From Acaryochloris marina S15 (GTDB lineage: Bacteria > Cyanobacteriota > Cyanobacteriia > Thermosynechococcales > Thermosynechococcaceae): 32,000 nucleotides of DNA. Location: the NCBI RefSeq assembly GCF_018336915.1, contig NZ_CP064923.1, positions 5,310,001 to 5,342,000 of the forward strand, written 5' to 3'. The notes below the pieces were generated by a model, which searched no databases, was not told where the DNA came from, and was given only the letters and a program-made list of their open reading frames with translations. This document shows, in pieces, positions 5,944 through 26,910 of the stretch. Within the stretch, counting starts at the first letter, position 1. Each line of letters starts with the position of its first letter. A program made the translations under genes and the position numbers.

Positions 5944-5971
5944 CATATTTTAGGCAACATTTAAGTTGCAA

Positions 5972-6016
5972 CATAGCCCTCAAATACTCACAGAGCTTGC
6001 GTATTTGAGGGCTATG
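5972..6016. terminator. Perfect 16-bp stem-loop between the convergent prx and GT2 genes
   Basis: CATAGCCCTCAAATAC (5972-5987) and GTATTTGAGGGCTATG (6001-6016) are exact reverse complements separated by a 13-nt loop. No U-tract follows on either strand, so terminator function is inferred only from its position. Confidence 0.45.
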
Positions 6017-6120
6017 TCGTTGGCCCTTCATAGGTCATACAAGCCTTTGCTTTGCCGAGATTGCTAACCAGATTCAACAACCTGATAGATGGCAATATGC
6101 TTATCACCTGGCTTATGCCT

Positions 6121-7110: not shown

Positions 7111-7387
7111 TGGTAATTTTATCTCACTCGCTATTCATTAACTCACTTCAGAGGACTTCATTCAAGAAAACTGCCAAGAACGGTATTTAGAGCATTTTTC
7201 GCAACTCAACGACCCAGATAAAGCTCAAATACCTTCTATAACTAACATTATTTAGGACCAATACTCGCCTCTTCTAGAAGGTAAACTTGGGTAAAATACT
7301 TGAGTGCTAAATTCTTAGCAATACCAAATAACGTTCATTAAAGCCTTTTTACCTGAAGGCCTAACACCTTTAGTATTAGAGAACCAC

Positions 7388-7972
7388 ATGAGGATTCTAC
7401 TCTTAGCTCCACATCCATTTTTCCAGACCCGTGGTACACCGATCGCAGTTGATCTTATGCTCAGAGTGCTATCAGAGAGGGGAGATCAGGTTGATATGCT
7501 GACTTTCCCAGAAGGGGATGATGTTGTCTATGACAACGTGCGGATCTATCGGACTCCTAAATTACCATTTATTAAAAATATCAGTCCAGGTTTTTCTGGG
7601 AAAAAACTGGTCTGTGATGGTTTTATGCTGATCCAGGCTATTAACCTCTGTTTGAAGTATAAATATGATATCGTCCATTCGGTTGAAGAATCGGCTTTTA
7701 TCGCGTTGGTTCTTAAAGTCGTGTTTAGAACACCCTATATCTATGATATGGACTCATCCCTGGCACAGCAAATGATTGAGAAATTTTCATTTCTCTCGTC
7801 TTTGCGCTTTCTCTTCAATGCTTTTGAAAGACTGGCCGTCCAACAAGCCAAAGTGGTGATACCTGTTTGCGAAACCTTATCTGAAGATATTCAAGTCTAC
7901 AAACCGAAGCGAGTGGTTGTTTTACCAGACATTTCGCTTTTAGATTACTCTGCCCCGAATAAAAAGGCATAA
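7388..7972 (+). CDS. GT4-family (GT-B fold) glycosyltransferase, N-terminal acceptor domain only (split gene, part 1)
   Basis: MRILLLAPHPFFQTRGTPIAVDLMLRVLSERGDQVDMLTF is a typical GT4 N-terminus. The ORF ends (..VVVLPDISLLDYSAPNKKA*) exactly where the interdomain linker of GT4 enzymes lies. Confidence 0.65.
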   Translation: MRILLLAPHPFFQTRGTPIAVDLMLRVLSERGDQVDMLTFPEGDDVVYDNVRIYRTPKLPFIKNISPGFSGKKLVCDGFMLIQAINLCLKYKYDIVHSVEESAFIALVLKVVFRTPYIYDMDSSLAQQMIEKFSFLSSLRFLFNAFERLAVQQAKVVIPVCETLSEDIQVYKPKRVVVLPDISLLDYSAPNKKA

Positions 7973-7994
7973 CTGATGAATAGAATCATCTGCA

Positions 7995-8642
7995 GTGACG
8001 AAATCTCACCCGTCCAATATGGATAATATCAACGAAAATATCAGAGAGCACTGTCAGCCTGATGAGCTCATTCTGATGTATGTCGGTAATTTAGAGCTTT
8101 ATCAGGGGATTGATTTGCTGCTGGATGGCTTTAAAGTAGCTCAGAATCTTGCTCTTAATGTCCCTTTAAAGCTCGTCATTATCGGCGGTAAAGATGGCGA
8201 CATTGCAAAATATAAGTTAAAAACGAAAAATATCGGCATTGACCACCAAGTTTTATTCTTAGGGCAACGCTCGGTAGAGAATCTAGGGTACTATCTCGCC
8301 CAAGCAGACATCCTGCTCTCTCCTCGCATTAAAGGAAGAAATACGCCAATGAAATTGTATTCTTATCTTGATAGTGGTAAGCCCGTCCTCGCCACTGATT
8401 TGCCAACGCATAATTGGGTTCTGGATAATGAGGTGGCAGTGCTCAGTGCGCCTAACCCAGAAGCGTTTGCCCAGGGAATTATCCACCTAGCCAACCATCC
8501 TCAAATTAGACAAACCCTCGCAGTCGCCGCCAAGAAAATGGTGCAACAAAGGCACTCATTTTCTGCTTATAAGCAGCAGCTCAATAGCTTATATGATTCA
8601 TTACAGTTAGAGTTCAACAATGCTGCCTCAATTGATCAATAA
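7995..8642 (+). CDS. GT4-family glycosyltransferase, C-terminal nucleotide-sugar donor domain only (split gene, part 2)
   Basis: ILMYVGNLELYQGIDLLLDGF...LVIIGG...VLFLGQRS...ADILLSPRIKGRNTPMKLYSYLDSGKPVLATD matches the Glycos_transf_1 core. It lies in a different frame from part 1. The start is uncertain (GTG 7995 or ATG 8019) and there is no clear SD. Confidence 0.65.
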   Translation: MTKSHPSNMDNINENIREHCQPDELILMYVGNLELYQGIDLLLDGFKVAQNLALNVPLKLVIIGGKDGDIAKYKLKTKNIGIDHQVLFLGQRSVENLGYYLAQADILLSPRIKGRNTPMKLYSYLDSGKPVLATDLPTHNWVLDNEVAVLSAPNPEAFAQGIIHLANHPQIRQTLAVAAKKMVQQRHSFSAYKQQLNSLYDSLQLEFNNAASIDQ

Positions 8643-8685
8643 TATGCTCTATTTTCAGCCAAAGCGTTAGGATGCCACTGGTTTT

Positions 8686-10395
8686 ATGCAACGAAATCTA
8701 GAGGAATTATCCAACACTAAATTTGACGTCTTAGTCATAGGCGGCGGCATTTATGGGGCTTGTGTTGCCTATGAAGCAATCCTAAGAGGCTTATCCGTTG
8801 CTTTAGTCGAAAAACAAGATTTTTGTGGGGCGACCTCAGCTAATAGCCTAAAAACCATCCATGGTGGCCTGCGATATCTACAGCATGCTGACTTTAAGCG
8901 GATGCGAGAGTCTATTTATGAGCGGCGCACATTAATGAAAATTGCGCCTCACCTCGTGCATCCCCTGCCTGTGTTGGTGCCGACCTATGGGCATGGATTG
9001 AAAGGCATAGAAGCGATGACGGTGGCACTAAAAATTAATGATTGGGTGAGTTGCGATCGCAACCACGGATTGCCCGATCCTCAACAACATATCCCGGCTG
9101 GTCGAACAATATCTGCGACCGAATGCCTACAGACCATGCCAGGCATTTCCGCAGATGGCCTCACTGGGGGAGCTATTTTCCACGATGCTCAAGTGTTCAA
9201 TTCAGAGCGGTTAGTGCTTGCCTATTTACAGTCTGCGACTCAGCTCGGGTTACAAGCTGCCAACTATCTTAAAGTCACTGATTTTTTACAAGATGGAGAT
9301 ACCATCCTTGGCGCTCAAGTGACGGATGCTCTAACTCAAAACACCTTTGATATTCAAGCCAAAACAATCATTAATACCAGCGGGCCATGGATTAATGAAG
9401 TCCTGGGATTGCTAGATCAACCTCCTTCCTCTCATCAGCCCTTTGCATTAGCCATGAACCTAGTAACCCGATCGCTATTTGATCATGACTATGCCGTCGG
9501 TATCTATAGCAAGACTGACTACACAGATGAAGATGCCATTCTAAAGCGCAAGAACCGATTACTCTTTATCGCACCTTGGCAAGGGTGCTCTTTAGTGGGT
9601 ACAACCTATTCACACTACTCTGATACCCCCGATCATTTATCTATACCCCAGCATGAAATCCAACACTTTTTGGATGACATCAACCATGCCTATCCACTCG
9701 CCAATCTAACGGCTCAGGATGTTTATTGGGTGCATCAAGGTCTACTCCCCAGCAGCCACTCCCCAGCAACCACTCATGTCCAATTAACCAAGCATTACCA
9801 CATCCAAAATTATCAAGAAGAAGGCTTAAATGGCCTCATCTCCGTCACCGGAGTTAAATATACAACTGCTCGCAACGTCGCCATCCATGCAGTCGATACT
9901 GCAGCAGCGATGTTAAAGAGGCCAGTCCTTCCCTCTCAGTCTGCTCAGCAACCCTTACATGGCGGAGCGATCGACAACCTAGATGACTTTTTGGACCAAG
10001 GGCATAACCAACTCAGCCGTATCCCTGATCATCCGTCTGTCCAGAATTTTCTCTACAATTACGGCACAGCCTATTCATCAGTTCTCAAACAGGTACAGCA
10101 CGGGCAACGAGCAACGCCACGACTAGACCTTCTACAAGCACAAGTCACCTATGCAATTGAGGAAGAAATGGCGCAAACCCTCAGTGACGTTATTTTTAGA
10201 CGCACGGGTATCGGCGCTGCCCAAAAGCCTACCACTGCAGAGTTACAAACTTGTGCAGATATTATGTCAAATACACTGTTATGGAATCAGTCTAGAGTAG
10301 AACAAGAGATCTCAGAAGTGACATCTAGGTGGTCTTGGTCTACTCCTAAACCACCCTCTGTGGGGGAAAAAACAGCAACTATTCAGGGAAGATAG
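8686..10395 (+). CDS. FAD-dependent oxidoreductase of the glycerol-3-phosphate dehydrogenase/oxidase (GlpD/GlpO) family
   Basis: 569 aa. FDVLVIGGGIYGACVAYEAILRGLSVALVEKQDFCGATSANSLKTIHGGLRYL is the GlpD-type FAD fold and signature. The C-terminal TLSDVIFRRTGIG resembles the DAO_C domain. Confidence 0.8.
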   Translation: MQRNLEELSNTKFDVLVIGGGIYGACVAYEAILRGLSVALVEKQDFCGATSANSLKTIHGGLRYLQHADFKRMRESIYERRTLMKIAPHLVHPLPVLVPTYGHGLKGIEAMTVALKINDWVSCDRNHGLPDPQQHIPAGRTISATECLQTMPGISADGLTGGAIFHDAQVFNSERLVLAYLQSATQLGLQAANYLKVTDFLQDGDTILGAQVTDALTQNTFDIQAKTIINTSGPWINEVLGLLDQPPSSHQPFALAMNLVTRSLFDHDYAVGIYSKTDYTDEDAILKRKNRLLFIAPWQGCSLVGTTYSHYSDTPDHLSIPQHEIQHFLDDINHAYPLANLTAQDVYWVHQGLLPSSHSPATTHVQLTKHYHIQNYQEEGLNGLISVTGVKYTTARNVAIHAVDTAAAMLKRPVLPSQSAQQPLHGGAIDNLDDFLDQGHNQLSRIPDHPSVQNFLYNYGTAYSSVLKQVQHGQRATPRLDLLQAQVTYAIEEEMAQTLSDVIFRRTGIGAAQKPTTAELQTCADIMSNTLLWNQSRVEQEISEVTSRWSWSTPKPPSVGEKTATIQGR

Positions 10396-10397
10396 CT

Positions 10398-10937
10398 ATG
10401 CCTTCTCCCATTGCGCACTCAGCAACTGCATATTTCCTATACAAAATCACGCCCCAAAACAATCGCTCTATCCACTTAAACCGACATCGTTGGATTGATC
10501 TTGCCTACATCATTGTGATTGGAAACATCGCGGATTTAGACTTTATTCCTCATCTAATCTTAGAAGGCAGTTTTCATCGAGGTCCTTCCCATAGTCTCTG
10601 TATTGCCTTACTGATCAGTATAGGCTGTACCCTTATTTTCAAATGGCTCCATCAATCAACCTTCCAACGATTGTTTTTACTCACGTTTGGAATCTATATC
10701 TCCCATCTTTTTCTGGATTTCTGGACAGCCGGGGGCTCTGGGATGAAGTTACTTTGGCCGTTTACCAATGCTTTTATTAAATCGCCAATTGCTTTTTTTC
10801 CCAGTGTTAGGCATTCCGAAGGATTATTCTATCCAGGTCATATCGTCTTTATGACCTTTGAGACCATTTACAGTGTCGTCCTGTTGGTATTCATTAATCG
10901 ATATCAAAAATATAAACGACAGAATCAAAATACATAG
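10398..10937 (+). CDS. Membrane-bound metal-dependent hydrolase, DUF457/YdjM family
   Basis: 179 aa. The start lies 2 nt after the upstream stop. It has the SPIAHS, ADLDFIPH, HRGPSHSL and HLFLDFWT...LLWPF motifs and several hydrophobic helices. Confidence 0.7.
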   Translation: MPSPIAHSATAYFLYKITPQNNRSIHLNRHRWIDLAYIIVIGNIADLDFIPHLILEGSFHRGPSHSLCIALLISIGCTLIFKWLHQSTFQRLFLLTFGIYISHLFLDFWTAGGSGMKLLWPFTNAFIKSPIAFFPSVRHSEGLFYPGHIVFMTFETIYSVVLLVFINRYQKYKRQNQNT

Positions 10938-10972
10938 ACTCAAAAAAAATATTTAAACCCAGATAATACCTA

Positions 10973-11824
10973 GTGAATATGCACGACTCACAACCATCCC
11001 ATATTCTTGTCGACGCCCATGTGCACCTGCATCACTGTTTTTCCTTACAAACAGTGCTCGATTCAGCATTACAGAATTTCCAAGATAATGGCCAATACAT
11101 AACGACCGGCTTACAGCATCAACTTGGGGTTCTATTCATCAATGAGATAGGGCACCAGAATTCATTTGCACAATTACGGGCAGACATATCTAACAAGCAA
11201 GCGATCACCCTTGATGACTGGACCTTAAACATCACACCTGAACAGGAATCACTAGTCGCTCACCATTCCTCCAATCAGCAAATTCTGCTCATTGTAGGCC
11301 GTCAAATTGTTACCCACGAAAATATCGAAGTCTTATCACTATTCTCAAGTACAACCATCCCAGAACAGCAATCCTTAGAGAAAACACTGCTAAATGTGAG
11401 TATGGCAGGAGGGTTAGCCGTCCTGCCCTGGGGATTTGGTAAATGGTTTGGTAAACGAGGCAAACTCGTGAATCAAGCGATTCAAGCCAGAGATCAAACT
11501 GAGATATTGATAGGCGACAACGGCAATAGACCCAGTTTTTGGATTAATCCAGTTTATCTAAATAAAGCTAAAAAAAAGGGCATCAAGGTATTACCAGGGA
11601 CAGATCCCTTACCTTTAGCAACAGAAGTGCACCGTCCTGGGAGTTTCGGATTCTACACCCAAGGGATCATTCAGGCCAACCATCCTGCAGCTTCTCTCAA
11701 ACAAATACTGATCGATCCAAACACAAGCCTTCAACCCTATGGATCGCTGGAAACGCCATTTCGCTTCATTAATAATCAAATTCAATTTAGACTACAAAAG
11801 AAAAAACGCAACGCCGTTGAATAG
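10973..11824 (+). CDS. Hypothetical protein with an N-terminal HxH metal-hydrolase-like motif (amidohydrolase/PHP-type?)
   Basis: 283-aa ORF in operon context. ILVDAHVHLHH near the N-terminus and LPGTDPLP later are the only recognisable motifs. ATG at 10979 is an alternative start. Confidence 0.5.
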   Translation: MNMHDSQPSHILVDAHVHLHHCFSLQTVLDSALQNFQDNGQYITTGLQHQLGVLFINEIGHQNSFAQLRADISNKQAITLDDWTLNITPEQESLVAHHSSNQQILLIVGRQIVTHENIEVLSLFSSTTIPEQQSLEKTLLNVSMAGGLAVLPWGFGKWFGKRGKLVNQAIQARDQTEILIGDNGNRPSFWINPVYLNKAKKKGIKVLPGTDPLPLATEVHRPGSFGFYTQGIIQANHPAASLKQILIDPNTSLQPYGSLETPFRFINNQIQFRLQKKKRNAVE

Positions 11825-11914
11825 TGTGTTCGAGCCCAAAACTGGTTGGACCTGCAATCCCTGGAATTGCTGAACCAGATTCATTAGCTCAACCTCAAAT
11901 GACAACACGCTAGA

Positions 11915-12694
11915 TTGAAAATCAGCCCGAGAAAACATAACGCTCTTTTACTCATTAATCAGATGCAGCCGGAGAACAACTTTTTAGAAACAGCAGATAT
12001 AGAAACATCTTCCGATGACTATGCTTCTCGTTTTCAAGGGCCTACAGGGGAGTGGCTGCTCCACGTTCAAGAGCAAGCCACCCTGTCTATGCTGACTCAA
12101 TATCCCAACGCCAGCATTTTAGATGTGGGTGGAGGACATGGGCAGCTAACCAAAGCCCTAATCAATAAAGAGTTTTCACTCACCGTTTTGGGTAGTAGCC
12201 TGTCTTGCCAAAACCGTATCAAAACTTATATTGACGCTGGACAGTGTGAGTTCAAGATGGGCGATGTTTTAAGCTTGCCTTACCCAGACAACGCCTTTGA
12301 TATTGTGATTAGTTATCGGTTTCTAGCACATGTGAACCAGTGGCAAGCGTTCTTATCTGAGCTAGGGCGTGTTGCCAAAACAGCCGTGATCGTCGATTAC
12401 CCCACCACTCGCAGCATTAACTACTTATCACCGTTATTATTCAAATTCAAAAAAGGCGTAGAGGGCAATACGCGAAAATTCATCTGTTACCAAGAGAAAG
12501 AGCTATTAGACTTTTGCAGCAGCATTGGGTTAGAGAAGGACAATCGTCATCCACAATTTTTTTGGCCAATGGTTCTCCATCGAATGATGAAGCAACCCAA
12601 AGTCTCAGAACTCCTGGAGAATCCAGTGAAGAAGCTCGGTTTAACATACGTATGGGGCTCTCCAGTAATTACAAAATTCCAGAAAGTTCACTAA
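11915..12694 (+). CDS. Class I SAM-dependent methyltransferase
   Basis: Motif I ILDVGGGHGQL, followed by PYPDNAFDIVISYRFLAHV (Methyltransf_11-like). The track start is TTG. ATG at 11963 (MQPENN) is a plausible alternative. Confidence 0.8.
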   Translation: MKISPRKHNALLLINQMQPENNFLETADIETSSDDYASRFQGPTGEWLLHVQEQATLSMLTQYPNASILDVGGGHGQLTKALINKEFSLTVLGSSLSCQNRIKTYIDAGQCEFKMGDVLSLPYPDNAFDIVISYRFLAHVNQWQAFLSELGRVAKTAVIVDYPTTRSINYLSPLLFKFKKGVEGNTRKFICYQEKELLDFCSSIGLEKDNRHPQFFWPMVLHRMMKQPKVSELLENPVKKLGLTYVWGSPVITKFQKVH

Positions 12695-12751
12695 TCTATT
12701 CATTACTCGAATCCATCATTCATCTAACCATCAACATCCATTAAATACCGT

Positions 12752-13786
12752 ATGTCTTCAATAATGGCTCACGAGAACACAATCAGCCCTGGTCAACGTG
12801 TTTTAGTGACTGGTGCAACTGGCTATACAGGCAGCACCTTAGTCCAAAAACTGCTGACCCAGAATGTAGAGGTTGTGGCGATAGCCCGCCAATCATCTGA
12901 TCTAAGCCGTTGGCAAGATGCACCCATTCAATGGATTAAGGGAGATGTTTTTGATCCACGGCTTATTCAACAGGCGATGGAAGGAGTGAACTATATATTT
13001 CATATGGTCACCCCGTTTCGGGAAGCAAAGTCGTCTGATGATGTTTATTACAATGTTCATGTTAAAAGTACACAGCTACTAGCGAAGGCAGCCTTAAACC
13101 AACCCGACTTCAAGCGCTTTGTCCATATATCGACGATAGGTGTCCATGGACATATCGAAAATCCTCCTGCTGATGAGAACTATAGAACTTCTCCTGGAGA
13201 TTTATACCAATCCACCAAATTAGAAGGCGAAATATGGATCAAGCAATTTGGTGCTGAAACTGGACTACCCGTAACCATCATCAGACCGGCAGGCATTATT
13301 GGGCCTGGTGAAAAACGGCTGTTAAAAATATACAAGATGGTTTGTTCTGGCTTGGTACCAGCCATTGGTAATGGGAGTAATCTTCTGCATTTAATTCACG
13401 TCGATGATTTGACCAACTGTTTTCTGCTGGCCTCTCAACATCCGAATGCAGTGGATGAAGTCTTCATTTGTGGAAATCAAGAATCGATTTCTTTCAAAGA
13501 AATGGTCAATTTGATCTCCGCGTGTTATCAGAAAAAAGCCACTCTTCTACCACTCCCAGCTGCGCCCTTATTCCTATTGGGAGACATGCTTGAGTTTATT
13601 TGTAAGCCTCTAAATATTGAGCCTCCCATTTACCGTAGAAGACTTGCCTTTTACACCAAAGATCGTGCATTCAATGTTAACAAGCTTAAATCGAAACTAG
13701 GTTTTGTGCCGCGACATTCCAATGAGCAGTGTGTTGCTGAACTAGCACAATGGTATTTACAAGAAGGGTGGACAACAGTTAGCTAA
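12752..13786 (+). CDS. NAD-dependent epimerase/dehydratase (extended SDR)
   Basis: VLVTGATGYTGSTLVQKLL (TGxxGxxG) and a catalytic YQSTK (YxxxK). 344 aa. Confidence 0.85.
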   Translation: MSSIMAHENTISPGQRVLVTGATGYTGSTLVQKLLTQNVEVVAIARQSSDLSRWQDAPIQWIKGDVFDPRLIQQAMEGVNYIFHMVTPFREAKSSDDVYYNVHVKSTQLLAKAALNQPDFKRFVHISTIGVHGHIENPPADENYRTSPGDLYQSTKLEGEIWIKQFGAETGLPVTIIRPAGIIGPGEKRLLKIYKMVCSGLVPAIGNGSNLLHLIHVDDLTNCFLLASQHPNAVDEVFICGNQESISFKEMVNLISACYQKKATLLPLPAAPLFLLGDMLEFICKPLNIEPPIYRRRLAFYTKDRAFNVNKLKSKLGFVPRHSNEQCVAELAQWYLQEGWTTVS

Positions 13787-13877
13787 ATTCATATCAATAG
13801 AAAAAGATTATAGCCAATATTACTCAAATATAATCCTCAGGAATCAGTTCAATAAACGTAAAACAATATATTTTTTA

Positions 13878-15734
13878 GTGATGCTAGATGCTGATATAAA
13901 GTCTCAACTAAGAGAAGCTCAGACTCAAACTGATATTTCTATAATATTGAGGAATATTCACTCCACAGACTTGTCAAGCTCAGATTACTTTTTTATTAGT
14001 AGAGTACTGAACAAAAAACATTCTGAATCTTGTTTAAAAATCGCCTACTTTTCGAATTACACGATTGTTCCTCTGCCTTCTTTTATTGAAGTACAGAGCG
14101 CTTTTCATAATATTGAAGTTAGGAGCTATATAGGAGAGTACAATCAGCACTATCAGGAAATACTAAATCCCAATTCATCAGCTTTAAGCTTCAGCCCTGA
14201 TATCGCTTTCTTACTCTTATCTCTACATGAGCTATGCCCTTCTATCCTGTACAGTTTTACAAGCCTTACTAATCAGCAAAAACTAGATCAAAAAAACATT
14301 ATTCTGGAGCATATCTTTAACTGGGTCAATCTCACTATAGACAAAACGAGTGCTACAGTTTTTGTCAGTGACTTCTTACAACCCACTTTTCCATCTCTTG
14401 GAATCGCGGATAGCCAGCAAAGTTATAGCGAACATGAATTCTATATTGAGCTAAATCTAGCCTTAAAAAAAGAATTTAGAGAAAATCCTAGAGTCTATGT
14501 TATTGATATAGATAAGTTAGCTTCCAGATATGGAAAAGAAGATGCTGTAAACTCCAAAATGTTTTTTATGGCCAAAGTTCTTTGGCATGAAAAATTTTTA
14601 CCCACAATTGCTCAAGAGATCATTCGATATCTCACCAGTTATTTGGGTCGAACTAAAAAATGTTTAGTTTTAGATCTTGACAACACATTATGGGGTGGAG
14701 TGGTTGGTGAGGAGGGAATAGAAGGCGTAAAGATTGGCAATGGCGATCCTATTAGCGAAGCCTATCTTGCTTTTCAATATAAAATTTCTGCTTTGAAAAA
14801 CCGAGGCATAATTCTTGGTATATGCAGTAAAAACAATCAAGCAGATGCTTTAGAAGTCTTTGACAAAAAAGTCGAAATGCCACTAAACATTCAAGACTTT
14901 TCAGCAATCGAAATCAACTGGGAACCCAAATATATCAATATCAAGAACATCGCTCAGAAGTTAAATATTGGAACTGACAGCATCGTCTTTATTGACGATA
15001 ATCCTGTAGAGTGTAGTCTTGTTTCTCAAGCACTTCCTGAAGTAACAACTGTCCAATTACCGAAAGACCCAGCTCTTTACGCTGATGTCCTCGACAAAAT
15101 TCTTGTATTTGAAAAGTTTAATATCCTAAGCGATGATCTCAACAAAGTACAGCAGTATTCGCAAAATGAACAGCGTAAAGAAGAGAAAGAACGAATCGGA
15201 GATCTCAACTCTTATCTACATAGCTTAGAGACGAAAGTTAAAATCTGCTTAGCTGCCGATCAAGATTTACCAAGGGTTCACCAACTCTTTTCTAAAACGA
15301 ATCAATTCAACCTAACCACTATTCGTTACTCGATGTCCAACATTGAGGAATTTCATAAGAATGAGCATGATTCGATTATAATTACCTCTGTTCAAGATAA
15401 ATTTGGCGATTTGGGCACTGTAGGATTATGCTTACTCAAAAACCAAGAGCATCAACTCCTGATTGACAGCTTTATACTGAGTTGTCGGGCGATGGGACGC
15501 GGCATTGAGACAGCATTGCTCAACTACATCAAGCGAGAATATCTTTTAGGTGACCGGTCGCTAAAGCTCATAGGGTCTTACATTCCCACAAAAAAGAACA
15601 TTCCGACTAGAGACTTTTTAGAATCGCAAGGATTTGTTCTAGTATCAAAAGGTACTCAGGGAGAAAAATATTATGAGGTGCACTCCGATGATGCATTAGA
15701 AGTCTCTTGTCCCTGGATTAACATTATTGATTAG
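13878..15734 (+). CDS. FkbH-like / HAD-superfamily subfamily IIIC protein (candidate glyceryl-ACP loader)
   Basis: 618 aa. HAD motif I is LVLDLDNTLWGGVVGEEGIEGVKIG, followed by GIILGICSKNNQADALEVF and FIDDNPVECSLV. The C-terminal GNAT-like part is FGDLGTVGLCLL...IDSFILSCRAMGRGIETALLNYI. The ~250-aa N-terminal extension is unassigned. Confidence 0.8.
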   Translation: MMLDADIKSQLREAQTQTDISIILRNIHSTDLSSSDYFFISRVLNKKHSESCLKIAYFSNYTIVPLPSFIEVQSAFHNIEVRSYIGEYNQHYQEILNPNSSALSFSPDIAFLLLSLHELCPSILYSFTSLTNQQKLDQKNIILEHIFNWVNLTIDKTSATVFVSDFLQPTFPSLGIADSQQSYSEHEFYIELNLALKKEFRENPRVYVIDIDKLASRYGKEDAVNSKMFFMAKVLWHEKFLPTIAQEIIRYLTSYLGRTKKCLVLDLDNTLWGGVVGEEGIEGVKIGNGDPISEAYLAFQYKISALKNRGIILGICSKNNQADALEVFDKKVEMPLNIQDFSAIEINWEPKYINIKNIAQKLNIGTDSIVFIDDNPVECSLVSQALPEVTTVQLPKDPALYADVLDKILVFEKFNILSDDLNKVQQYSQNEQRKEEKERIGDLNSYLHSLETKVKICLAADQDLPRVHQLFSKTNQFNLTTIRYSMSNIEEFHKNEHDSIIITSVQDKFGDLGTVGLCLLKNQEHQLLIDSFILSCRAMGRGIETALLNYIKREYLLGDRSLKLIGSYIPTKKNIPTRDFLESQGFVLVSKGTQGEKYYEVHSDDALEVSCPWINIID

Positions 15735-15746
15735 GATAAATAAGTT

Positions 15747-15986
15747 ATGGCTAAAAGTGGTGTCCAAGAAAGAGTTAAACTGGTTTTTTCTGACGTTCTA
15801 GACATCGATCTGCAAACAATTTCAGATGATCTTGGCCCTGACAACTGTGATAGCTGGGATTCTATGAATAATCTACGGCTCATTACAGCTTTAGAAGAAG
15901 AGTTCAGTATTAATTTCTCAATGGAAGAGATCTCTTCAATGGTTGATATTAGCCGTGCAATTGAGCTAATTGAAAGCAAAAGCTAG
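15747..15986 (+). CDS. Acyl carrier protein
   Basis: 79 aa and acidic. Starts 13 nt after the FkbH-like stop. CDSWDSMNNLRLITALEEEF matches the DS(W/L)xS...L..ALEEEF phosphopantetheine-attachment helix of stand-alone ACPs in polysaccharide loci. Confidence 0.75.
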   Translation: MAKSGVQERVKLVFSDVLDIDLQTISDDLGPDNCDSWDSMNNLRLITALEEEFSINFSMEEISSMVDISRAIELIESKS

Positions 15987-16022
15987 ATAGCGCTTATTCA
16001 ATCCTCAGATTTGACCTAATAT

Positions 16023-16574
16023 GTGATTTTCAAGGACTATGCTGTAATGGATGCTGGTAAAATTGTCCGTAGGTTTTTAGTTCCATCACCTGCAATTACC
16101 CTATATTATCTAATAAAGTTTGGGGCTAAAATCAGTCCTAAAGCTGAGGTTGAACTCAGTTCATTTTTCACAATTGGTCGCCAATCTGTTATCAGTTCAT
16201 TTACTAAGATTAAGGCATCTGAAGGGCCACTAAAAATTGGTTCACATGTTTCTATTTCAACGGGATGCTTTATCAGTTCCCATACGGGTGGACTTGAAAT
16301 TGGTGATTACTGCTTAGTGGGTCCAAATGTAACAATAGTAGGCAATAATTATAACTATAGTAAAATTGATGTTCCCTTAGAACAACAAGGAATTATATCT
16401 AAAGGAATTAGGATTGGTAGCAATGTTTGGCTAGGTGCGGGTGTATGCGTTCTCGATGGAGTCACAGTCGGAGATAATTGTATTATCACCCCTAATTCAG
16501 TTATCTCGTCAAATATTCCTTCCGGTGCGATCGCAAGTGGGCAACCAGCTAAAGTTATTTTTAAACGTAGGTAG
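16023..16574 (+). CDS. Left-handed beta-helix (hexapeptide-repeat) acyl/acetyltransferase
   Basis: Hexapeptide repeats IGDYCLVGPNVTIVG...IGSNVWLGAGVCVLDGVTVGDNCIITPNSVISSNIPSGAIASGQPAKVI. The track start is GTG; ATG at 16047 is an alternative. Confidence 0.8.
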   Translation: MIFKDYAVMDAGKIVRRFLVPSPAITLYYLIKFGAKISPKAEVELSSFFTIGRQSVISSFTKIKASEGPLKIGSHVSISTGCFISSHTGGLEIGDYCLVGPNVTIVGNNYNYSKIDVPLEQQGIISKGIRIGSNVWLGAGVCVLDGVTVGDNCIITPNSVISSNIPSGAIASGQPAKVIFKRR

Positions 16575-16767
16575 TGCGCTACAGAGAAATTGCGGTTCGG
16601 CAATATCAAATTCATTTCTATCATCACTCTTTTCTGCGATCTAGACTCATTCTATTAGTTCCAATATCAGTTGCAATAGGCTAGGTAATTTACCCAAAAA
16701 ATCTATTATTAGATTCACGAAATATGAAGAATTTATATCAAGTTTCTTTATCCTCTAAGTTATTAGT

Positions 16768-17766
16768 ATGTACTCATCTAGCATAAGAAATACTAATCCT
16801 ATTTTCATCTTCGGATCGGCACGATCAGGAACTTCTTTATTGAGTCGAATCATTAATTCTCACCCTAGAATTTCAGTTCCATTTGAATCTCATTTATACG
16901 ACACTTTTTATCCCTGGCTGAAGTATTACGGCGATTTAAATCTCTCTAAAAATAGAGAACGCTTAGTCGATGATATTTTAAGTATTGAATGCATGAGAGA
17001 TTGGAGTCCTAGACCTGGTCGAGAATGTGTTTTAGCAGCAGTCTCACAGAATAATTTTGCTGGTATCGTAGATGGATTAATCCGGTCATGGTCTATCAGC
17101 CAGGGGAAAAAAAGATGGGGAGAAAAAACACCAGCGCATGCCTTTTTTTGGCGTGAGATCTTAAATGATTTTCCTAATTGCAAGGTTATTCACATCGTGC
17201 GTGATGGCCGCGACTCATCCTTGTCTTTAAAAAATGCTCGTTTTGGCCCCAAACATTATTATCATTTAGCAAAAGTATGGGTGAAATATTTACAGGTTAT
17301 TGAAAGCTTAAAATCCAAGATAAATAGTAGCTCTTTTTATGAGATACGCTACGAAGATTTGTTGTCTAATACCAATGCTAAATCTAGAGAGATATGTGAT
17401 TTTCTTGAGGAAGATTTTTCTGAAGAAATGCTCAGTTTCTATAACAATAATAATCCATATCCAACTGACAAAGATAATCTCAAAAACCTAGCGAAACCTA
17501 TCATATCTAGCAATTCCAATAAATGGAAGAGTAGTATGTCTCCTAGAGATATAAGAATATTTGAGTCAGTCGCTGGTCCTTATTTAGAGGCATATGGTTA
17601 TGAAACAGTAATGAGTCATCCTACAATCTCTTCTATAGAAGAGTGGTTAATTAAGTATTTTGAGCATCCTCCCAAAAAGATTTTATCTATGATCAAGAAT
17701 AGGAAAGGTCATATTGATGGTTTGCGTAGGTTAGCTATTTATACTCGTCTTGTTATTACTCAATAG
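16768..17766 (+). CDS. PAPS-dependent sulfotransferase
   Basis: 5'-PSB loop FIFGSARSGTSLLSRI and 3'-PB motif IHIVRDGRDSSLS. 332 aa. Confidence 0.8.
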   Translation: MYSSSIRNTNPIFIFGSARSGTSLLSRIINSHPRISVPFESHLYDTFYPWLKYYGDLNLSKNRERLVDDILSIECMRDWSPRPGRECVLAAVSQNNFAGIVDGLIRSWSISQGKKRWGEKTPAHAFFWREILNDFPNCKVIHIVRDGRDSSLSLKNARFGPKHYYHLAKVWVKYLQVIESLKSKINSSSFYEIRYEDLLSNTNAKSREICDFLEEDFSEEMLSFYNNNNPYPTDKDNLKNLAKPIISSNSNKWKSSMSPRDIRIFESVAGPYLEAYGYETVMSHPTISSIEEWLIKYFEHPPKKILSMIKNRKGHIDGLRRLAIYTRLVITQ

Positions 17767-17839
17767 TGTTATGCCCGTCATATATTACTGTTGTGTTTTT
17801 GAAACATTGAGATTTAAAAATATATACTGAATAACAAGA

Positions 17840-19330
17840 ATGAGTAAGTTCATTAAGGGCGCTGGTATTTCATTTATTGGGCAACTAGGAAGTACTGGCT
17901 TAAAATACCTCACCCAAGTTACTCTAGCCTGGATTTTTGGAGCTGAAGTGTTTGGTTTATACACCCTGGGTCTCGTTTTCTATCAATTTTGTGACTTATT
18001 TGCTCGGTTAGGCTTAGAGTTTGGAGCTGTACGTTATGTTGCCATCAACACGACTGCAGAAAGCCGCCCCAACTTAAAAGGGGTTCTACTGACCATACTA
18101 GGTCTCCCATTCATATTCGGATGTGTTCTTGGAGGCATACTATTTTATTGGTCTAGTTTTATTGCCACCGATATTTTTCAAAAACCAGACTTAGCTGTTG
18201 TTCTACAGATATTTTCTCTCGCTATACCTGTCGGCGCTAGCATGACCACAGGCTCGTTTGCAACAACAGGGTTTCAAACTACTTTATATAGAGTCTTAGT
18301 ATTTGACTTAATTGTGCCATTCACCAATCTATTCTTCGCGATTGGTTTAGGGCTAATTGGATTCAAGCTATTGGGAGCATCCTTAGCTTGGTTAATAGCA
18401 TTAATAGTTGGTTTAATACTTATTTTTTATTTTATTTGCAATCTATTTCCAGATATTTTTTCAAGCAAAGTAAAGCCAGTTTTCAATCTAAAAGAAATCC
18501 TTAGTTTCTCTTTACCATTATCTTTTGGAACATTTGTTTGGTTACTTTTAATTTGGACTGATATCTTGATGCTAGGCTACTATAGCAGCGCATCAGAAGT
18601 CGGGATCTATCGAGCTGCTTCACAAACTGCTTTTTTGATGATCCTTTTTGATCGTTCTCTCATCACAATTTTTGTGCCTACAATTGCAAGCTTATTTAAT
18701 CAAGAGAAACTGTCAGAGGCTAATCAACTATATACAACTTCTACTCGTTGGAATTTTATCCTAACTTTACCGCTGTTTATCATACTAACTATTTCTAGCC
18801 AACATATACTCAAAATTTATGGCTCTGATTTTCAATCTGCATGGATGATTCTAATTATCTTGGCAACAGGACAATTAACAAGATCAGGGGGCGGTGGCTT
18901 ATGCATGCATATGTTAGCCATGTCAGGAAACCAATATTTAAAGCTATATGGTGATATTGCTCTAGCCACTACAAATATAACACTTAATTTTTTGCTCATT
19001 CCCTTATGGGGACCACTAGGAGCATCTATTGCTACTGCTTCTAGCATGGCTGGAATTAATTTAGTGCGCGTGATTCAAGTCAAGTACGTTCTAGGAGTTT
19101 ATCCATATTCATTTCGTGATTTCAAACTCATTATTTGTGGTGTAGTGGCTGCTTTGTCTGGCGTCTTAATTCAGTATTTTTTGCATGACATATTTTATTT
19201 ACTGCTAATTGCAATATCTGCACTTGTCATGATTATTACATACAGCCTGATTCTTTTTTTTACAGCACTCAATGAAGATGACAAACTACTTATCAATCAG
19301 TATAAAATAAAGCTTAAAAACTTTCTATAA
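17840..19330 (+). CDS. wzx: Wzx-type oligosaccharide/polysaccharide flippase (MOP superfamily)
   Basis: 496 aa. Hydrophobic throughout, with about 12-14 predicted TM segments and the N- and C-terminal halves typical of Polysacc_synt proteins. The symbol denotes the family only. Confidence 0.75.
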   Translation: MSKFIKGAGISFIGQLGSTGLKYLTQVTLAWIFGAEVFGLYTLGLVFYQFCDLFARLGLEFGAVRYVAINTTAESRPNLKGVLLTILGLPFIFGCVLGGILFYWSSFIATDIFQKPDLAVVLQIFSLAIPVGASMTTGSFATTGFQTTLYRVLVFDLIVPFTNLFFAIGLGLIGFKLLGASLAWLIALIVGLILIFYFICNLFPDIFSSKVKPVFNLKEILSFSLPLSFGTFVWLLLIWTDILMLGYYSSASEVGIYRAASQTAFLMILFDRSLITIFVPTIASLFNQEKLSEANQLYTTSTRWNFILTLPLFIILTISSQHILKIYGSDFQSAWMILIILATGQLTRSGGGGLCMHMLAMSGNQYLKLYGDIALATTNITLNFLLIPLWGPLGASIATASSMAGINLVRVIQVKYVLGVYPYSFRDFKLIICGVVAALSGVLIQYFLHDIFYLLLIAISALVMIITYSLILFFTALNEDDKLLINQYKIKLKNFL

Positions 19331-19700
19331 GATGAAATTTGCGAAAGAAAGAATACTATTTCAACAGTACTAATTCAAGAAGCCAGCAACTAAGATAAGT
19401 TGTGACAAGGAATGACTTCTATCCCTTATCGGGTAGTTTTATTATATGCTTTCGCTCATGAGCAAGTCTCAAAATATCTTTTGAATCATTGATTAAATAC
19501 TTCCTGGTTAGTTCACCGTATAAATTGAGTCAATAGCACAACATAAAGCGAATATTGCAAGAGGTCTCAAGTTTTCGCCATATCATGAAGTCTAGTTCGA
19601 CCTCTCTAAAGTCTTCTGACGTCTAGAGTTCCATCACGATTTTGAGGTAGAAAATTATTTTTTAGTGGCGCATCAAAAGGCAAGGTTCGTTGGAGTATAA

Positions 19701-21116
19701 ATGAAACATTTAAAACTATTATGCGTTTTCTCTATCTTACTTTTCACAGGTTGTAAATCTGAAAATCTGGGAAGTGAAAATCCAGAAAGTAAAAATATTC
19801 CTTATGCATCCATTGAGCCGACCCAATTCACTGTAGATTTACCGCAAGAATATGACGGGTCTGGTGGGTTAGTTGCGATCGATATTACCCAAGATAGCAA
19901 GAAAGACTTCATCATTACCCAAACCAATCACATCGCTGCTTATCGCCATTCTGGCGAAAAACTTTGGACCAAAACAGCTGATATACAGCTCTCAGATAAA
20001 TCAGAACGGCAAGGGCTACCGGGATTACATGCTCCAGGTGTTCAAGTCGCTGATATTGATGGGGATGACAAACCAGAAGTCCTATTTATTACAAGAGACA
20101 ATAGATTACATGTTGTCCAGGGAGAAGATGGCAAATCTGAACATACGCTGGCATTACCCTCTCCGGCAAAATCAAACCGTTGGGAACATATTGTCGTTGC
20201 TGATTTTCGGGGGAAAGGCGACCGCGATATTTTGTTGCAATCTACGACGGAAACGGAGTATCGATTAGGGCGTCATCTTGCAGCTTATTCCATCGACAGC
20301 TTGCTGAAAGATCCTAAAACGCCACCCCTATGGGTACAAAATGATTTTCATAGCGCCGCCCATAATGGTGTTCGTGTGATGGATCTCAACGGCGATGGTA
20401 AGGATGAAGTGATCGGAGCCAATATCCTCAATGGTCAAGGCAAGATCCTGTTTCAGCTTCCCCTCACCTTGCAAAGGTTCCCCCACATTGATTCTGTTTT
20501 TATCTCTGATGTTGACCCCAATATCGAAGGATTAGAGGTGATTGCTCTGGAAGAGGGAGGCGATAATCGCGTTTTTCTCTACAATACAGAGCAGTTGATC
20601 TGGCAAATCGATTATAAAAATCAAGAACCTCAAAATGCTGTTTTTGGAGATTTTGACCTCGAACGGCCGGGTCTAGAAATTTGGTGTAGAAGTCGGTATA
20701 ACGAAGACCAAAAGCCTTTTATCTTTGACGCCCAAGGGAAATTCATAAACTCCTACAGAATGTCTAATGTCGCCCCGAATGATTGGACGATTAAAGGGGT
20801 CGAAGTCATTATTCCCATTCACTGGACCGGTGAACCCAAGCAATTAGCTGCGGCCAAAGAGCGTCACGAATCAGGAGATGTGGGCATTTTTGATCCGGTC
20901 AGTGGCGCATTTCTCTATAAATTTAAAACAACTGCCGATCGCCTCTATGTAGCAGATGTGACGGGGGATTGGCGAGAAGAATTAATCGTCTTAAACCAGA
21001 AAGAACTGAAGATTTTTCAAAATCCTGCTCCTAATGCTAATCCAAATCAACCTAGATTATGGGATCAAAAACATTATCAACGCAGTAAGATGACCTGGAA
21101 TTACTATAGTCCTTGA
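19701..21116 (+). CDS. Lipoprotein with FG-GAP/Ca-binding beta-propeller repeats, resembling PL11 rhamnogalacturonan-lyase-type propellers
   Basis: Signal peptide plus lipobox MKHLKLLCVFSILLFTGC. Repeated D-x-D/N-G-D loops are present (DIDGDDKPEVLF, DFRGKGDRDILL, DLNGDGKDEVIG, DVTGDWREELIV). The C-terminal RLWDQKHYQRSKMTWNYYSP recalls the YesW/YesX C-terminal motif. Confidence 0.5.
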   Translation: MKHLKLLCVFSILLFTGCKSENLGSENPESKNIPYASIEPTQFTVDLPQEYDGSGGLVAIDITQDSKKDFIITQTNHIAAYRHSGEKLWTKTADIQLSDKSERQGLPGLHAPGVQVADIDGDDKPEVLFITRDNRLHVVQGEDGKSEHTLALPSPAKSNRWEHIVVADFRGKGDRDILLQSTTETEYRLGRHLAAYSIDSLLKDPKTPPLWVQNDFHSAAHNGVRVMDLNGDGKDEVIGANILNGQGKILFQLPLTLQRFPHIDSVFISDVDPNIEGLEVIALEEGGDNRVFLYNTEQLIWQIDYKNQEPQNAVFGDFDLERPGLEIWCRSRYNEDQKPFIFDAQGKFINSYRMSNVAPNDWTIKGVEVIIPIHWTGEPKQLAAAKERHESGDVGIFDPVSGAFLYKFKTTADRLYVADVTGDWREELIVLNQKELKIFQNPAPNANPNQPRLWDQKHYQRSKMTWNYYSP

Positions 21117-25749: not shown

Positions 25750-26910
25750 ATGTCCTCCCAACGTCGTACATTCAGCGCTAGTTTCAAAGCTAAGGTGGTT
25801 TTACAACTATTGCGTGGCGACAAAACAGCAATGGAGTTGTGTTGGACCTACAAACTCCACCCCAGTCTACTCAACCGCTGGCATCAAGAATCTCTAGACG
25901 AAACTCGCTGTCTTTGTGAAGCCCCTGTTGCTGATGAGAGAGTTCAGCAAATCTTACAGGCCGTGCCTTCTCAAGCGTTCTCACCATCTCAGGGATCGCA
26001 ACATCGCTTCTTGTCTGATGCCACGACGCGACGCGCATTTCTAGCTTTATTGGGCTTTGCAGGAGTAGGAGCAATGGGACTGCTGACCTCTTGTGAGTCC
26101 AATGAAATCGTGACGGTTGATGCTAAGGGCCGTACCGTTAACCGCCGCCGTCTCCCTCAACTACAAACTTTTACCGAAAATCTCGACAACAACACCTTAT
26201 TAGAGATGGTGTTGATACCTGGAGGCACCTTCACAATGGGTTCGCCCTCAAGTGAGTCAGAAAGGAATCAGGATGAAGGGCCGCAGCATGAGGTGAGTTT
26301 ACCTGACTTTTATCTGGGTAAGTATCCTGTGACTCAAGCTCAATGGCAAGCCATTATGGGTTCTAATGCCTCTCACTTCAAAGGCGCAAATCGTCCAGTT
26401 GAGCAAGTCACCTGGTACAAAGCTTTTGAATTTTGCCAGAAACTCTCCCAGAAAAGTGGCCAAATATATCATCTTCCCAGTGAGGCAGAATGGGAATATG
26501 CCTGTCGAGCGGGAACAACTACTCCCTTCTATACAGGGGAAATAATTACCCCTAAGCTCGCGAATTACGATGGTACTTTTACCTATGATGCTGGTCCTAA
26601 AGGGCAATATCGAGAACAGACGACTAACGTCGGTAGCTTTCCTCCAAATGCCTTTGGTCTATATGACATGCATGGCAATGTCTGGGAATGGTGCCATGAC
26701 ACTCCCCATAAAACATACACTGGAGCACCGACAGATGGAAGTGCTTGGATAGATGAGAATGATACTGATGATCGTATTATTCGCGGTGGCTCCTGGCTCA
26801 ACCCTCCAGGGAACTGTCGCTGTGCAGAGCGCTTCAGGTTCACTGCTGGATTCCGCAACTACAATCTTGGTTTTCGAGTAGCTTGGGTTGGGTCAAGTAC
26901 GCTTCCATAG
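25750..26910 (+). CDS. FGE-sulfatase (SUMF1/EgtB/PvdO-type) domain protein; the native product probably starts internally with a Tat/lipoprotein signal
   Basis: The core is LIPGGTFTMGSP...EGPQHEVSLPDFYLGKYPVTQAQW...RPVEQVTWYKAFEFC...LPSEAEWEYACRAGTTT...NAFGLYDMHGNVWEWC...RGGSW...LGFRV. TTRRAFLALLGFAGVGAMGLLTSC is a twin-arginine signal with a lipobox. TTG at 26011 gives MSDATTRRAFL.... The first ~50 codons of the track ORF are transposase-derived (see next feature). Confidence 0.85.
   Translation: MSSQRRTFSASFKAKVVLQLLRGDKTAMELCWTYKLHPSLLNRWHQESLDETRCLCEAPVADERVQQILQAVPSQAFSPSQGSQHRFLSDATTRRAFLALLGFAGVGAMGLLTSCESNEIVTVDAKGRTVNRRRLPQLQTFTENLDNNTLLEMVLIPGGTFTMGSPSSESERNQDEGPQHEVSLPDFYLGKYPVTQAQWQAIMGSNASHFKGANRPVEQVTWYKAFEFCQKLSQKSGQIYHLPSEAEWEYACRAGTTTPFYTGEIITPKLANYDGTFTYDAGPKGQYREQTTNVGSFPPNAFGLYDMHGNVWEWCHDTPHKTYTGAPTDGSAWIDENDTDDRIIRGGSWLNPPGNCRCAERFRFTAGFRNYNLGFRVAWVGSSTLP
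25759..25902 (+). mobile_element. Remnant of an IS3-family transposase orfA (HTH, COG2963-type), fused in frame to the downstream gene
   Basis: QRRTFSASFKAKVVLQLLRGDKTAMELCWTYKLHPSLLNRWHQESLDE follows the RRxFSxEFKAKVxLExLxGEKTxxELxxxYxxHPxQIxxWKxxLLE pattern of IS3-family orfA N-termini. No orfB, frameshift site or inverted repeats follow. Confidence 0.55.

Follow-up and report, generated by a model that had tools for sequence, protein, structure and literature searches.

What might an FkbH-like enzyme, of a family that loads carrier proteins, be doing among glycosyltransferases and a flippase? The question is raised by a 32,000-nucleotide stretch of Acaryochloris marina S15 DNA (contig NZ_CP064923.1, positions 5,310,001 to 5,342,000; hereafter the window), in which a variable surface-glycan locus of ~15 kb (6.1-21.1 kb of the window) contains, in close succession, genes for an FkbH-like enzyme, a dedicated acyl carrier protein (ACP), a left-handed beta-helix (LbH) transferase, a sulfotransferase and a Wzx-type flippase. 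Open reading frame (ORF) calls and hidden Markov model (HMM) searches bear out the common orientation, the positions and the family assignments given to these five genes in an earlier note made from the DNA letters. The note had also treated them as a single cassette, whereas comparison with related loci indicates that the conserved unit is the triad FkbH-ACP-LbH, an optional addition to a larger core locus. We consider it somewhat probable that this triad is a carrier-protein-dependent acylation module, which would probably place a glyceroyl group derived from glycolysis on a sugar, the individual steps being proposed from homology and gene context.

FkbH domains load 1,3-bisphosphoglycerate onto carrier proteins and dephosphorylate it (PMC8949500, PMC7489565). 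The FkbH-like gene of the window (13881-15734, + strand) encodes a predicted glyceryl-S-ACP synthase composed of three domains, FkbH_N (36.2 bits, cutoff 27), a HAD-IIIC phosphatase (TIGR01681, 78.9 bits, cutoff 35.75) and a GNAT-fold C-terminal domain, and matches TIGR01686 with 288.4 bits (cutoff 146.65), its residues 259-587 covering profile positions 2-320 of 323. Candidate starts lie at 13878 and 13881; the ATG at 13881 is the most likely, giving 617 amino acids as in the database twin P0001, and the counterpart in another A. marina strain is 83 % identical. Residue conservation was assessed across 15 homologues of 42-83 % identity. HAD motifs I-IV are kept, with D266, D268, T270 (DxDxT), S317, K318, K351, D373 and D374 invariant, and equally invariant is C536-R537-x-x-G540-R541-G542 within the segment DSFxLSCRAMGRG, in which the Cys stands directly before the GNAT RxxGxG motif. 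The HAD nucleophile Asp and the transfer thiol, on which the earlier assignment hinged, can both be aligned and are present in all 15 homologues, and we infer that Cys536 corresponds to the catalytic Cys of characterised FkbH enzymes. The GNAT fold is a pantetheine-binding fold, and Cys536, by its place ahead of the RxxGxG motif, lies where a pantetheine thiol would approach. A fold search with a confident AlphaFold model (predicted local distance difference test, pLDDT, 88.1) matched the C-terminal domain to GNAT acetyltransferase folds (E ~1e-6) and the N-terminal part to PDB entry 3slr (template-modelling (TM) score 0.86, normalised to the length of 3slr). The latter, BF1531 of Bacteroides fragilis, is the sole solved relative and resembles the N-terminal and HAD domains (E 1.8e-58); it is however a structural-genomics fragment with no assigned function that lacks the Cys-bearing C-terminal GNAT domain. 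Judged by its sequence, the FkbH-like protein bears every feature expected of a glyceryl-ACP synthase, and the gene for a dedicated ACP follows it. More than 7,900 FkbH-like proteins were found in a database search at E <= 1e-10. A homologue of ~33 % identity is encoded on Sinorhizobium meliloti pSymB (L094; locus numbers with L are ours) and occurs in about 40 plasmid records.

The spacer between the FkbH-like gene and the ACP gene (15747-15986, + strand; 79 amino acids) measures 12 nt and not 13 as first counted. The expected carrier Ser is present, in a WDS(M/L) motif that is kept in the listed ACPs adjoining FkbH or LbH, and alignment places the predicted phosphopantetheine site at Ser39 rather than at the previously proposed Ser36. 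To see how general this pairing is, 87 loci were compared, 80 from species-representative genomes searched with an FkbH profile and seven fetched earlier. An ACP with the conserved WDS motif adjoins FkbH in 81 of the 87, in both Bacteria and Archaea, and in four of the six loci without an adjacent ACP the contig stops at FkbH. The FkbH-ACP pair is represented in Cyanobacteria, Acidobacteriota, Proteobacteria, Firmicutes, Thaumarchaeota and Asgard archaea, with an AcpS-type phosphopantetheinyl transferase (PPTase) as neighbour in 10 loci. Glycan-type neighbours include family 2 and family 4 glycosyltransferases (GT2, GT4), Wzx, NeuB (in seven loci), UDP-sugar dehydrogenase and deacetylase genes. 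Archaeal contigs with the pair came from Asgard archaea, Thaumarchaeota and Nanoarchaeota (L018-L020, L024, L025, L032, L046, L047), often with an adjacent AcpS-type PPTase and, in a few, with a MaoC dehydratase or NeuB nearby. Carrier-protein systems are, to our knowledge, uncommon in Archaea.

The third member of the triad, a predicted acyl-ACP-dependent glycan acyltransferase (16047-16574, + strand; Hexapep 59.7 bits), has candidate starts at 16023 and 16047, of which the ATG at 16047 is the most likely, giving 175 amino acids as in all orthologues. It belongs to a family (here LbH-175) of 174-176 amino acids and at least 50 % identity, with 239 database clusters and a conserved N-terminus of its own. 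Of 17 loci with an FkbH at least 40 % identical to that of the window, 13 or more have LbH-175 after the ACP, and an ACP adjoined LbH-175 in all nine loci obtained from searches that did not start with FkbH. Look-ups started from the LbH protein gave an adjacent ACP in three of three cases, two of them (L091, L093) with the order FkbH-ACP-LbH and the third (L092) with the order LbH-ACP-short-chain dehydrogenase/reductase (SDR), followed by an AMP-binding ligase instead of FkbH. The search started from the sulfotransferase found further ACP-LbH pairs in L097, L102, L129 and L136: L097 and L136 read ACP-LbH175-sulfotransferase with an AMP-ligase nearby, and L129 reads sulfotransferase-FkbH-ACP-LbH. 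In L006, L091, L093 and L097 a 4-nt overlap joins the ACP gene to the LbH gene. The link between LbH and ACP drawn in the earlier note thus holds across phyla and also in searches started from LbH. Since an AMP-ligase can replace FkbH beside the same ACP-LbH pair, the LbH protein tracks the carrier protein and not the loader, and this association, whatever the loader, is the best available evidence that LbH consumes acyl-ACP. The segments in which an AMP-binding (adenylating) enzyme serves the ACP-LbH175 pair are 8001-10898 in L092, 9147-12528 in L097 and 9222-12499 in L136.

The genes that surround the triad recur with or without it. A core locus comprising GT2, GT4, a GlpD/GlpO-like oxidoreductase, a conserved 283-amino-acid protein, a methyltransferase, an SDR, the sulfotransferase, Wzx and an FG-GAP protein, frequently joined by YdjM, LPG_synthase_TM, PMT_2-type GT-C and FG-GAP/RGL11-like or DUF5060/GH5 genes, is shared by A. 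marina, Okeania, Calothrix, Moorena, gammaproteobacterial metagenome-assembled genomes and Acidobacteriota; the upstream genes accompany the triad in Okeania, Calothrix, gammaproteobacteria and Acidobacteriota. In Moorena (L089) the gene order is that of the window through sulfotransferase, Wzx and FG-GAP, with one 262-amino-acid LbH gene in place of FkbH-ACP-LbH175, and a gammaproteobacterial locus (L090) has the sulfotransferase and core genes with no acylation genes. Because of these two loci we assign the sulfotransferase and Wzx to the core locus and regard the triad as an interchangeable insert. The Wzx/MOP-family flippase (17840-19330, + strand; 496 amino acids) matches Polysacc_synt with 79.4 bits (cutoff 28.2), and its Moorena orthologue, in the same position, scores 513 bits.

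Other genes take up the position next to the FkbH-ACP pair elsewhere. On the Niveispirillum cyanobacteriorum plasmid NZ_CP025615 (L095) a WcbI-family polysaccharide acetyltransferase gene comes after the same pair, and in Acidobacteriota GNAT/FemAB-like genes do so. A MaoC dehydratase and a FabG-type reductase lie directly after the ACP in 29 loci, an arrangement that recalls the formation of lactate by FkbH-DH-KR in bryostatin. Fused MaoC-dehydratase/SDR genes (~545 amino acids) stand between ACP and LbH in Okeania, Calothrix and one gammaproteobacterium (L004 12428-14068, L008 12159-13799, L022 12122-13744, L088 8308-9951). The insertion of MaoC/SDR suggests that glyceroyl is converted into a lactoyl-type unit while on the carrier. 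In L095 the region 5462-13268, with a sulfotransferase, FkbH-ACP, the WcbI-family acetyltransferase and an SDR, is enclosed by a Tn3-family transposase and IS66 elements, and is possibly a mobile version of the module.

In the pathway that we propose, the FkbH-like enzyme would take 1,3-bisphosphoglycerate, and its HAD domain (Asp266/Asp268) would remove the 3-phosphate. The glyceroyl group would be held on Cys536 in the GNAT-fold C-terminal domain and passed to the phosphopantetheine thiol at Ser39 of the 79-amino-acid ACP, whereupon the 175-amino-acid LbH protein would use glyceroyl-S-ACP instead of an acyl-CoA and move the C3 hydroxyacyl unit onto a lipid-linked glycan, at one of its sugars. 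Assembly of this glycan would fall to the products of the GT2, split GT4, GlpD-like/SDR and methyltransferase genes nearby; the sulfotransferase would add sulfate, most likely to the glycan, and the Wzx-type protein would flip the decorated unit. The triad would represent a swappable decoration module, replaceable by a different LbH without an ACP, extended by MaoC/SDR to lactoyl-type groups, or served by an adenylating ligase in place of FkbH.

The site of sulfation is where an alternative fares best. The sulfotransferase (16768-17766, + strand; 332 amino acids; Sulfotransfer_3 103.2 bits, cutoff 27) had been taken to use 3'-phosphoadenosine 5'-phosphosulfate (PAPS), in agreement with R19-S20-G21-T22-S23 and R145-D146-G147-R148-D149/S153, which are invariant in 16 homologues. 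We lean towards a sugar of the glycan as its target, and regard sulfation of the acyl group as possible and rather unlikely. The enzyme would in that event act on the glyceroyl unit, on the ACP or after transfer, and give 3-O-sulfoglyceroyl or, should the methyltransferase of the locus act too, 2-O-methyl-3-O-sulfoglyceroyl, mirroring the loading modules of dysinosin and suomilide. Among solved structures the sulfotransferases CurM (E 2e-9) and OLS (E 1e-8) come closest to it; both sulfate a beta-hydroxyl of an ACP-bound acyl chain, which speaks for the acyl group as target, although the PDB similarity is remote (40 bits). The sulfotransferase gene is contiguous with ACP-LbH in the window and in L088, L093, L097, L102, L129 and L136, and other sulfotransferases lie near FkbH-ACP in ~10 Acidobacteriota loci and on the Niveispirillum plasmid. 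The cyanobacterial non-ribosomal peptide synthetases (NRPSs) DysB and SuoB likewise bring together FkbH, carrier, sulfotransferase and methyltransferase, and these FkbH, methyltransferase and sulfotransferase domains are implicated in forming the sulfated, O-methylated glyceric acid of their products (PMC6520454, PMC8609519). However these are domains of a peptide-making NRPS, whereas the window proteins are stand-alone and lie in a glycan locus, and the top 120 homologues of the sulfotransferase are all stand-alone, none having NRPS domains. The window-type sulfotransferase and methyltransferase are moreover found without FkbH: orthologues of the sulfotransferase with 56-60 % identity occur in core loci devoid of FkbH, ACP and LbH-175 (Moorena L089, gammaproteobacterial L090 and L103), as does the L123 sulfotransferase with 45 % identity, and the methyltransferase tracks the core locus and not FkbH, being present in Moorena and missing from the allele of L005, a locus of a near-identical strain.

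A second alternative, which we judge quite improbable, would make the LbH protein an ordinary acetyl-CoA-dependent O-acetyltransferase functionally unrelated to FkbH-ACP, leaving glyceroyl-ACP to another enzyme such as the FkbH GNAT domain, a glycosyltransferase or, as a thioester reductase, the SDR, which also matches models of that type (NAD_binding_4, TIGR01746). The earlier note had likened the LbH protein to LpxA and LpxD. These matches are confined to residues 120-163 (LpxA, 32.1 bits, cutoff 226) and 120-165 (LpxD, 45.4 bits, cutoff 207), and the nearest relatives are instead the CoA-dependent maltose, galactoside and WbbJ-type O-acetyltransferases, minus their catalytic His: the best PDB sequence matches are the maltose and galactoside O-acetyltransferases (MAT and GAT; E 1e-18 with a profile), and CoA-type models score below their cutoffs (WbbJ 83.6 bits against 243, WcaF 56.7 against 192, MAT 47 against 314). 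The catalytic His of both the CoA-dependent enzymes and LpxA/LpxD is missing, no invariant His being found when either 11 or 34 orthologues were aligned; the MAT catalytic His aligns to Y102 or to the variable residue 105, and Y102 and Y104 are conserved. The resemblance to CoA-acetyltransferases together with the lack of this His makes the chemistry of the LbH protein uncertain. These observations count against an acyl-ACP-dependent transfer as well as for its alternative, and several others add to them. The AlphaFold model of the LbH protein is poor (pLDDT 66.9), its PDB fold search gave only LbH matches short of significance (best E 0.056, TM-score ~0.2), and the related His-less LbH of Moorena, at the same position in the locus, has no ACP partner. 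The ACP falls below the cutoff of PP-binding (PF00550; 18.4 bits against 20.8) and far below those of the NCBIfam ACP models (26-30 bits against 66-106), and appears to represent a divergent ACP subfamily. Family searches of window ORFs of at least 100 amino acids gave no Wzy, no polysaccharide co-polymerase (PCP) or outer-membrane polysaccharide export (OPX) protein and no priming phosphoglycosyltransferase, and an exopolysaccharide (EPS) or lipopolysaccharide (LPS) repeat unit is accordingly not established; among related loci, L090 and L097 do have a Bac_transf gene. The acyl group could also be modified on the ACP before transfer, and the triad subfamily is so far a matter of sequences and gene context. 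Against an unrelated acetyltransferase stands the finding that LbH-175 adjoins an ACP wherever examined, often with the stop codon of one gene overlapping the start codon of the next, and also where an AMP-ligase replaces FkbH. It forms moreover a tight family with its own N-terminus and without the acetyltransferase His, and no other candidate consumer of acyl-ACP is conserved alongside the ACP-LbH pair.

That FkbH-ACP serves a small-molecule pathway (tetronate, butenolide, methoxymalonyl-ACP or NRPS/polyketide synthase (PKS)) rather than glycan decoration is very improbable indeed, for although the characterised FkbH/ACP pairs in the searchable literature all come from PKS/NRPS pathways, the window and close loci contain no ketosynthase, FabH-like, condensation or thioesterase gene, homologues of FkbK, FkbI and FkbG are missing too, the neighbours are glycosyltransferases and flippases, and the lookalike GlpD-like/SDR/methyltransferase set also occurs without FkbH. 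A non-orthologous methoxymalonyl-ACP pathway, in which FkbH, ACP, SDR, the GlpD-like FAD enzyme and the methyltransferase would be analogues of FkbH/J/K/I/G, was considered and rejected because the GlpD-like, SDR, methyltransferase and 283-amino-acid protein genes form a unit without FkbH/ACP in L089 and L090.

Glycan acylation by a carrier-protein module is the reading that we prefer, and it can be set beside several known systems. The earlier note did not recognise the gene combination as a described system, and we too found no paper on it in the searchable literature; nor did that literature, which leaves subscription journals outside and so makes a prior description possible, link FkbH-ACP or LbH-175 to glycan acylation. 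Searches for FkbH together with polysaccharide, capsule or O-antigen returned only natural-product papers and the mention of a Campylobacter jejuni gene. The FK520 pair FkbH/FkbJ and the tetromadurin pairs Mad7/Mad8 and Mad14/Mad12 share with the window a homologous loader, an adjacent stand-alone ACP, the HAD Asp and the conserved Cys, the glyceryl-ACP chemistry being that of the methoxymalonyl-ACP and tetronate pathways (PMC7489565, PMC8949500). The window however lacks the downstream dehydrogenases, FkbG-type O-methyltransferase, FabH-like enzyme and PKS of those systems, and glyceroyl-ACP would be consumed by a small LbH transferase encoded among glycosyltransferase and flippase genes. Delivery of an acyl group on a phosphopantetheinyl carrier to sugar-containing envelope molecules is exemplified by LpxA/LpxD, which use acyl-ACP and have the LbH fold, and by D-alanylation through DltA/DltC. 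The proposed acyl group here differs in being a glycolytic C3 hydroxy acid, loaded by a HAD/GNAT enzyme and not by fatty-acid synthesis or an adenylating enzyme; the match to LpxA/LpxD extends only to the generic hexapeptide region.

The flagellin glycosylation island of C. jejuni holds the FkbH-domain gene cj1302, and bacterial sugars with glyceroyl-type acyl groups have been described (PMC7099621, PMC3068675, PMC5378307), among them the di-O-methylglyceroyl-pseudaminic acid of C. jejuni and the Pse5Am7Gra of Tannerella forsythia. In both species, however, the acyl group is N-linked to nonulosonic acids. The window has no NeuB gene, and no link from cj1302 to the glyceroyl group was found in searchable papers. 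The synechan (xss) locus of Synechocystis 6803 also unites sulfotransferase, Wzx and glycosyltransferase genes (PMC8205485), and an Acaryochloris EPS has been reported to be sulfated (PMC11034128). In contrast to the window, where no Wzy, PCP or OPX gene was found, xss includes Wzy and PCP genes but lacks a carrier-protein module for acylation.

The triad lies in DNA of deviating composition. The five-gene stretch from FkbH to Wzx has a G+C content of 36.2 %, against 45.2 % for the rest of the window, and 5.45-kb windows clear of it never fall below 42.9 %. Two-breakpoint segmentation delimited a low-G+C block at 13,601-19,800, with 36 % G+C inside and 45.5 % outside, and G+C at third codon positions (GC3) is 0.26-0.34 in the five genes, 0.38-0.47 in the upstream cluster genes and 0.42-0.52 in the flanks. 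The G+C step thus lies where the earlier note had put it. The note's conclusion that the five genes were acquired separately from their flanks holds only in part, since the block that diverges between strains is wider. Compared with the strain of L005, the flanks have 96-99 % DNA identity and 97-100 % protein identity, DNA identity drops from ~98 % to ~75 % at ~9390, inside the GlpD-like gene, and the divergent block extends from ~9,390 to ~21,310, twice the length of the five-gene stretch; proteins encoded from the GlpD-like gene to Wzx are 36-79 % identical between the two. The G+C step is thus real and yet not a recombination boundary. Because a near-identical strain carries a divergent allele over ~9.4-21.3 kb, we regard the whole locus as an exchange hotspot, and the pattern points to allelic replacement at a variable surface-glycan locus, which may be swapped between Acaryochloris strains through recombination in conserved flanks, as for serotype-type loci.

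A mobile-island signature at the G+C boundaries was sought and rejected, with no tRNA, insertion sequence or boundary repeat in the window; repeats at these boundaries were at chance level only, and comparison with plasmid DNA gave no match to the window. In A. marina L001 transposase genes directly follow Wzx. The Rfam search of the window gave no match, promoter-like sites were not enriched (35 observed, 41 ± 6 expected) and terminator-like sites were slightly above expectation (19 observed, 12.3 ± 3.3 expected). The 94-nt spacer upstream of FkbH (13787-13880) has a G+C content of 23 %, and a terminator-like hairpin with a T-run lies at 19419-19436, 89 nt past the Wzx stop; as consensus matches only, the two may mark operon boundaries.

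The remaining genes of the locus are those of the core. A GT2 glycosyltransferase of 329 amino acids with a hydrophobic C-terminal tail (6121-7110, - strand; Glycos_transf_2 106.6 bits) has orthologues at the corresponding locus of A. marina L001, L005, Calothrix L022, Moorena L089, L091 and L092. It is followed by a GT4 (GT-B) enzyme encoded as two ORFs (7388-8642, + strand), the N-terminal half at 7388-7972 matched by Glyco_transf_4 and the C-terminal half at 7995-8642 by Glycos_transf_1, one Rossmann half each. The split is kept in A. marina, a second Acaryochloris strain, Calothrix and Moorena, Okeania having a single fused gene of 447 amino acids, and looks like a genuine two-polypeptide enzyme and not a pseudogene. 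Next on the + strand are the GlpD/GlpO-like flavin adenine dinucleotide (FAD) oxidoreductase (8686-10395; PDB match to glycerol-3-phosphate dehydrogenase/oxidase, E 1e-52), a YdjM-family inner-membrane protein (10398-10937; PF04307 62.1 bits) syntenic in Okeania, Calothrix and Moorena, and the conserved core-locus protein of 283 amino acids (10973-11824), which begins with an N-terminal DAHVHLHH motif, found no match in Pfam, NCBIfam or PDB sequence searches and has orthologues in L004, L006, L008, L011, L015, L022, L089 and L090. In L092 (10889-12424) this protein is fused to an S-adenosylmethionine (SAM) methyltransferase, which suggests that the two work together. The class I SAM methyltransferase of the window (11915-12694, + strand; Methyltransf_11 49.4 bits) probably starts near 11963; Okeania, Moorena, L015 and L092 have this gene as well, and the L005 allele lacks it. 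The core SDR (12752-13786, + strand) is an extended-type NAD-dependent epimerase/dehydratase-like enzyme (Epimerase 117.4 bits; HpnA-like model 134.7 bits, under cutoff), and might form with the FAD enzyme an oxidise/reduce epimerase whose substrate would be a lipid-linked sugar or a glycerol-phosphate unit. Downstream of Wzx a secreted FG-GAP/RGL11-C-like beta-propeller protein (19701-21116, + strand; FG-GAP_3 66.3 bits, RGL11_C 62.6 bits) is also a locus member in Okeania (58 % identity) and Moorena (626 bits), its place being taken in L005 by a VanZ/Laminin_G gene.

Two genes elsewhere in the window deserve mention. At 1343-3820 an 825-amino-acid, probably secreted, repeat protein contains ~10 copies of a ~40-amino-acid ELWxSDGTxxGTQLLKDINPG repeat and, after them, RTX calcium-binding nonapeptide repeats (HemolysinCabind 118.7 bits). 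At 25750-26910 lies an FGE-sulfatase-family protein (201 bits) whose annotated N-terminus resembles a transposase-type helix-turn-helix segment; a twin-arginine/lipoprotein-like signal follows this segment, and the true start may lie downstream.

The FkbH-ACP-LbH triad appears to be a real, widespread and uncharacterised variant of known FkbH/ACP chemistry, and its product, its acceptor and the chemistry of the LbH protein we infer. Short hydroxyacyl groups such as glyceroyl and lactoyl influence how bacterial glycans act as antigens, how phages recognise them and what properties the polymers have. Only tentatively would we go further and suggest that FkbH-ACP is the donor arm of a widespread and hitherto unrecognised carrier-protein pathway that places glycolysis-derived C3 hydroxyacyl groups on cell-surface glycans in many bacterial phyla and Archaea, with the 175-amino-acid LbH proteins as a new, His-less family of acyl-ACP-dependent sugar acyltransferases. 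If this is true, the C3 groups would include glyceroyl, lactoyl after MaoC/SDR processing and possibly sulfoglyceroyl, and the LbH-175 family would accept alternative loaders, FkbH or AMP-ligase. The pathway would then supply the missing genetic basis of glyceroyl-type substituents such as those on the nonulosonic acids of C. jejuni and T. forsythia, and FkbH-ACP with a small transferase would become a sequence marker for such decorations. The genes behind N-glyceroyl substitution have been described as 'a major challenge' (PMC5378307). The swappable loaders and tailoring enzymes could serve the engineering of acylated or sulfated exopolysaccharides, and polyketide carrier-protein chemistry would, if the proposal is true, extend to glycan decoration fed directly by 1,3-bisphosphoglycerate.

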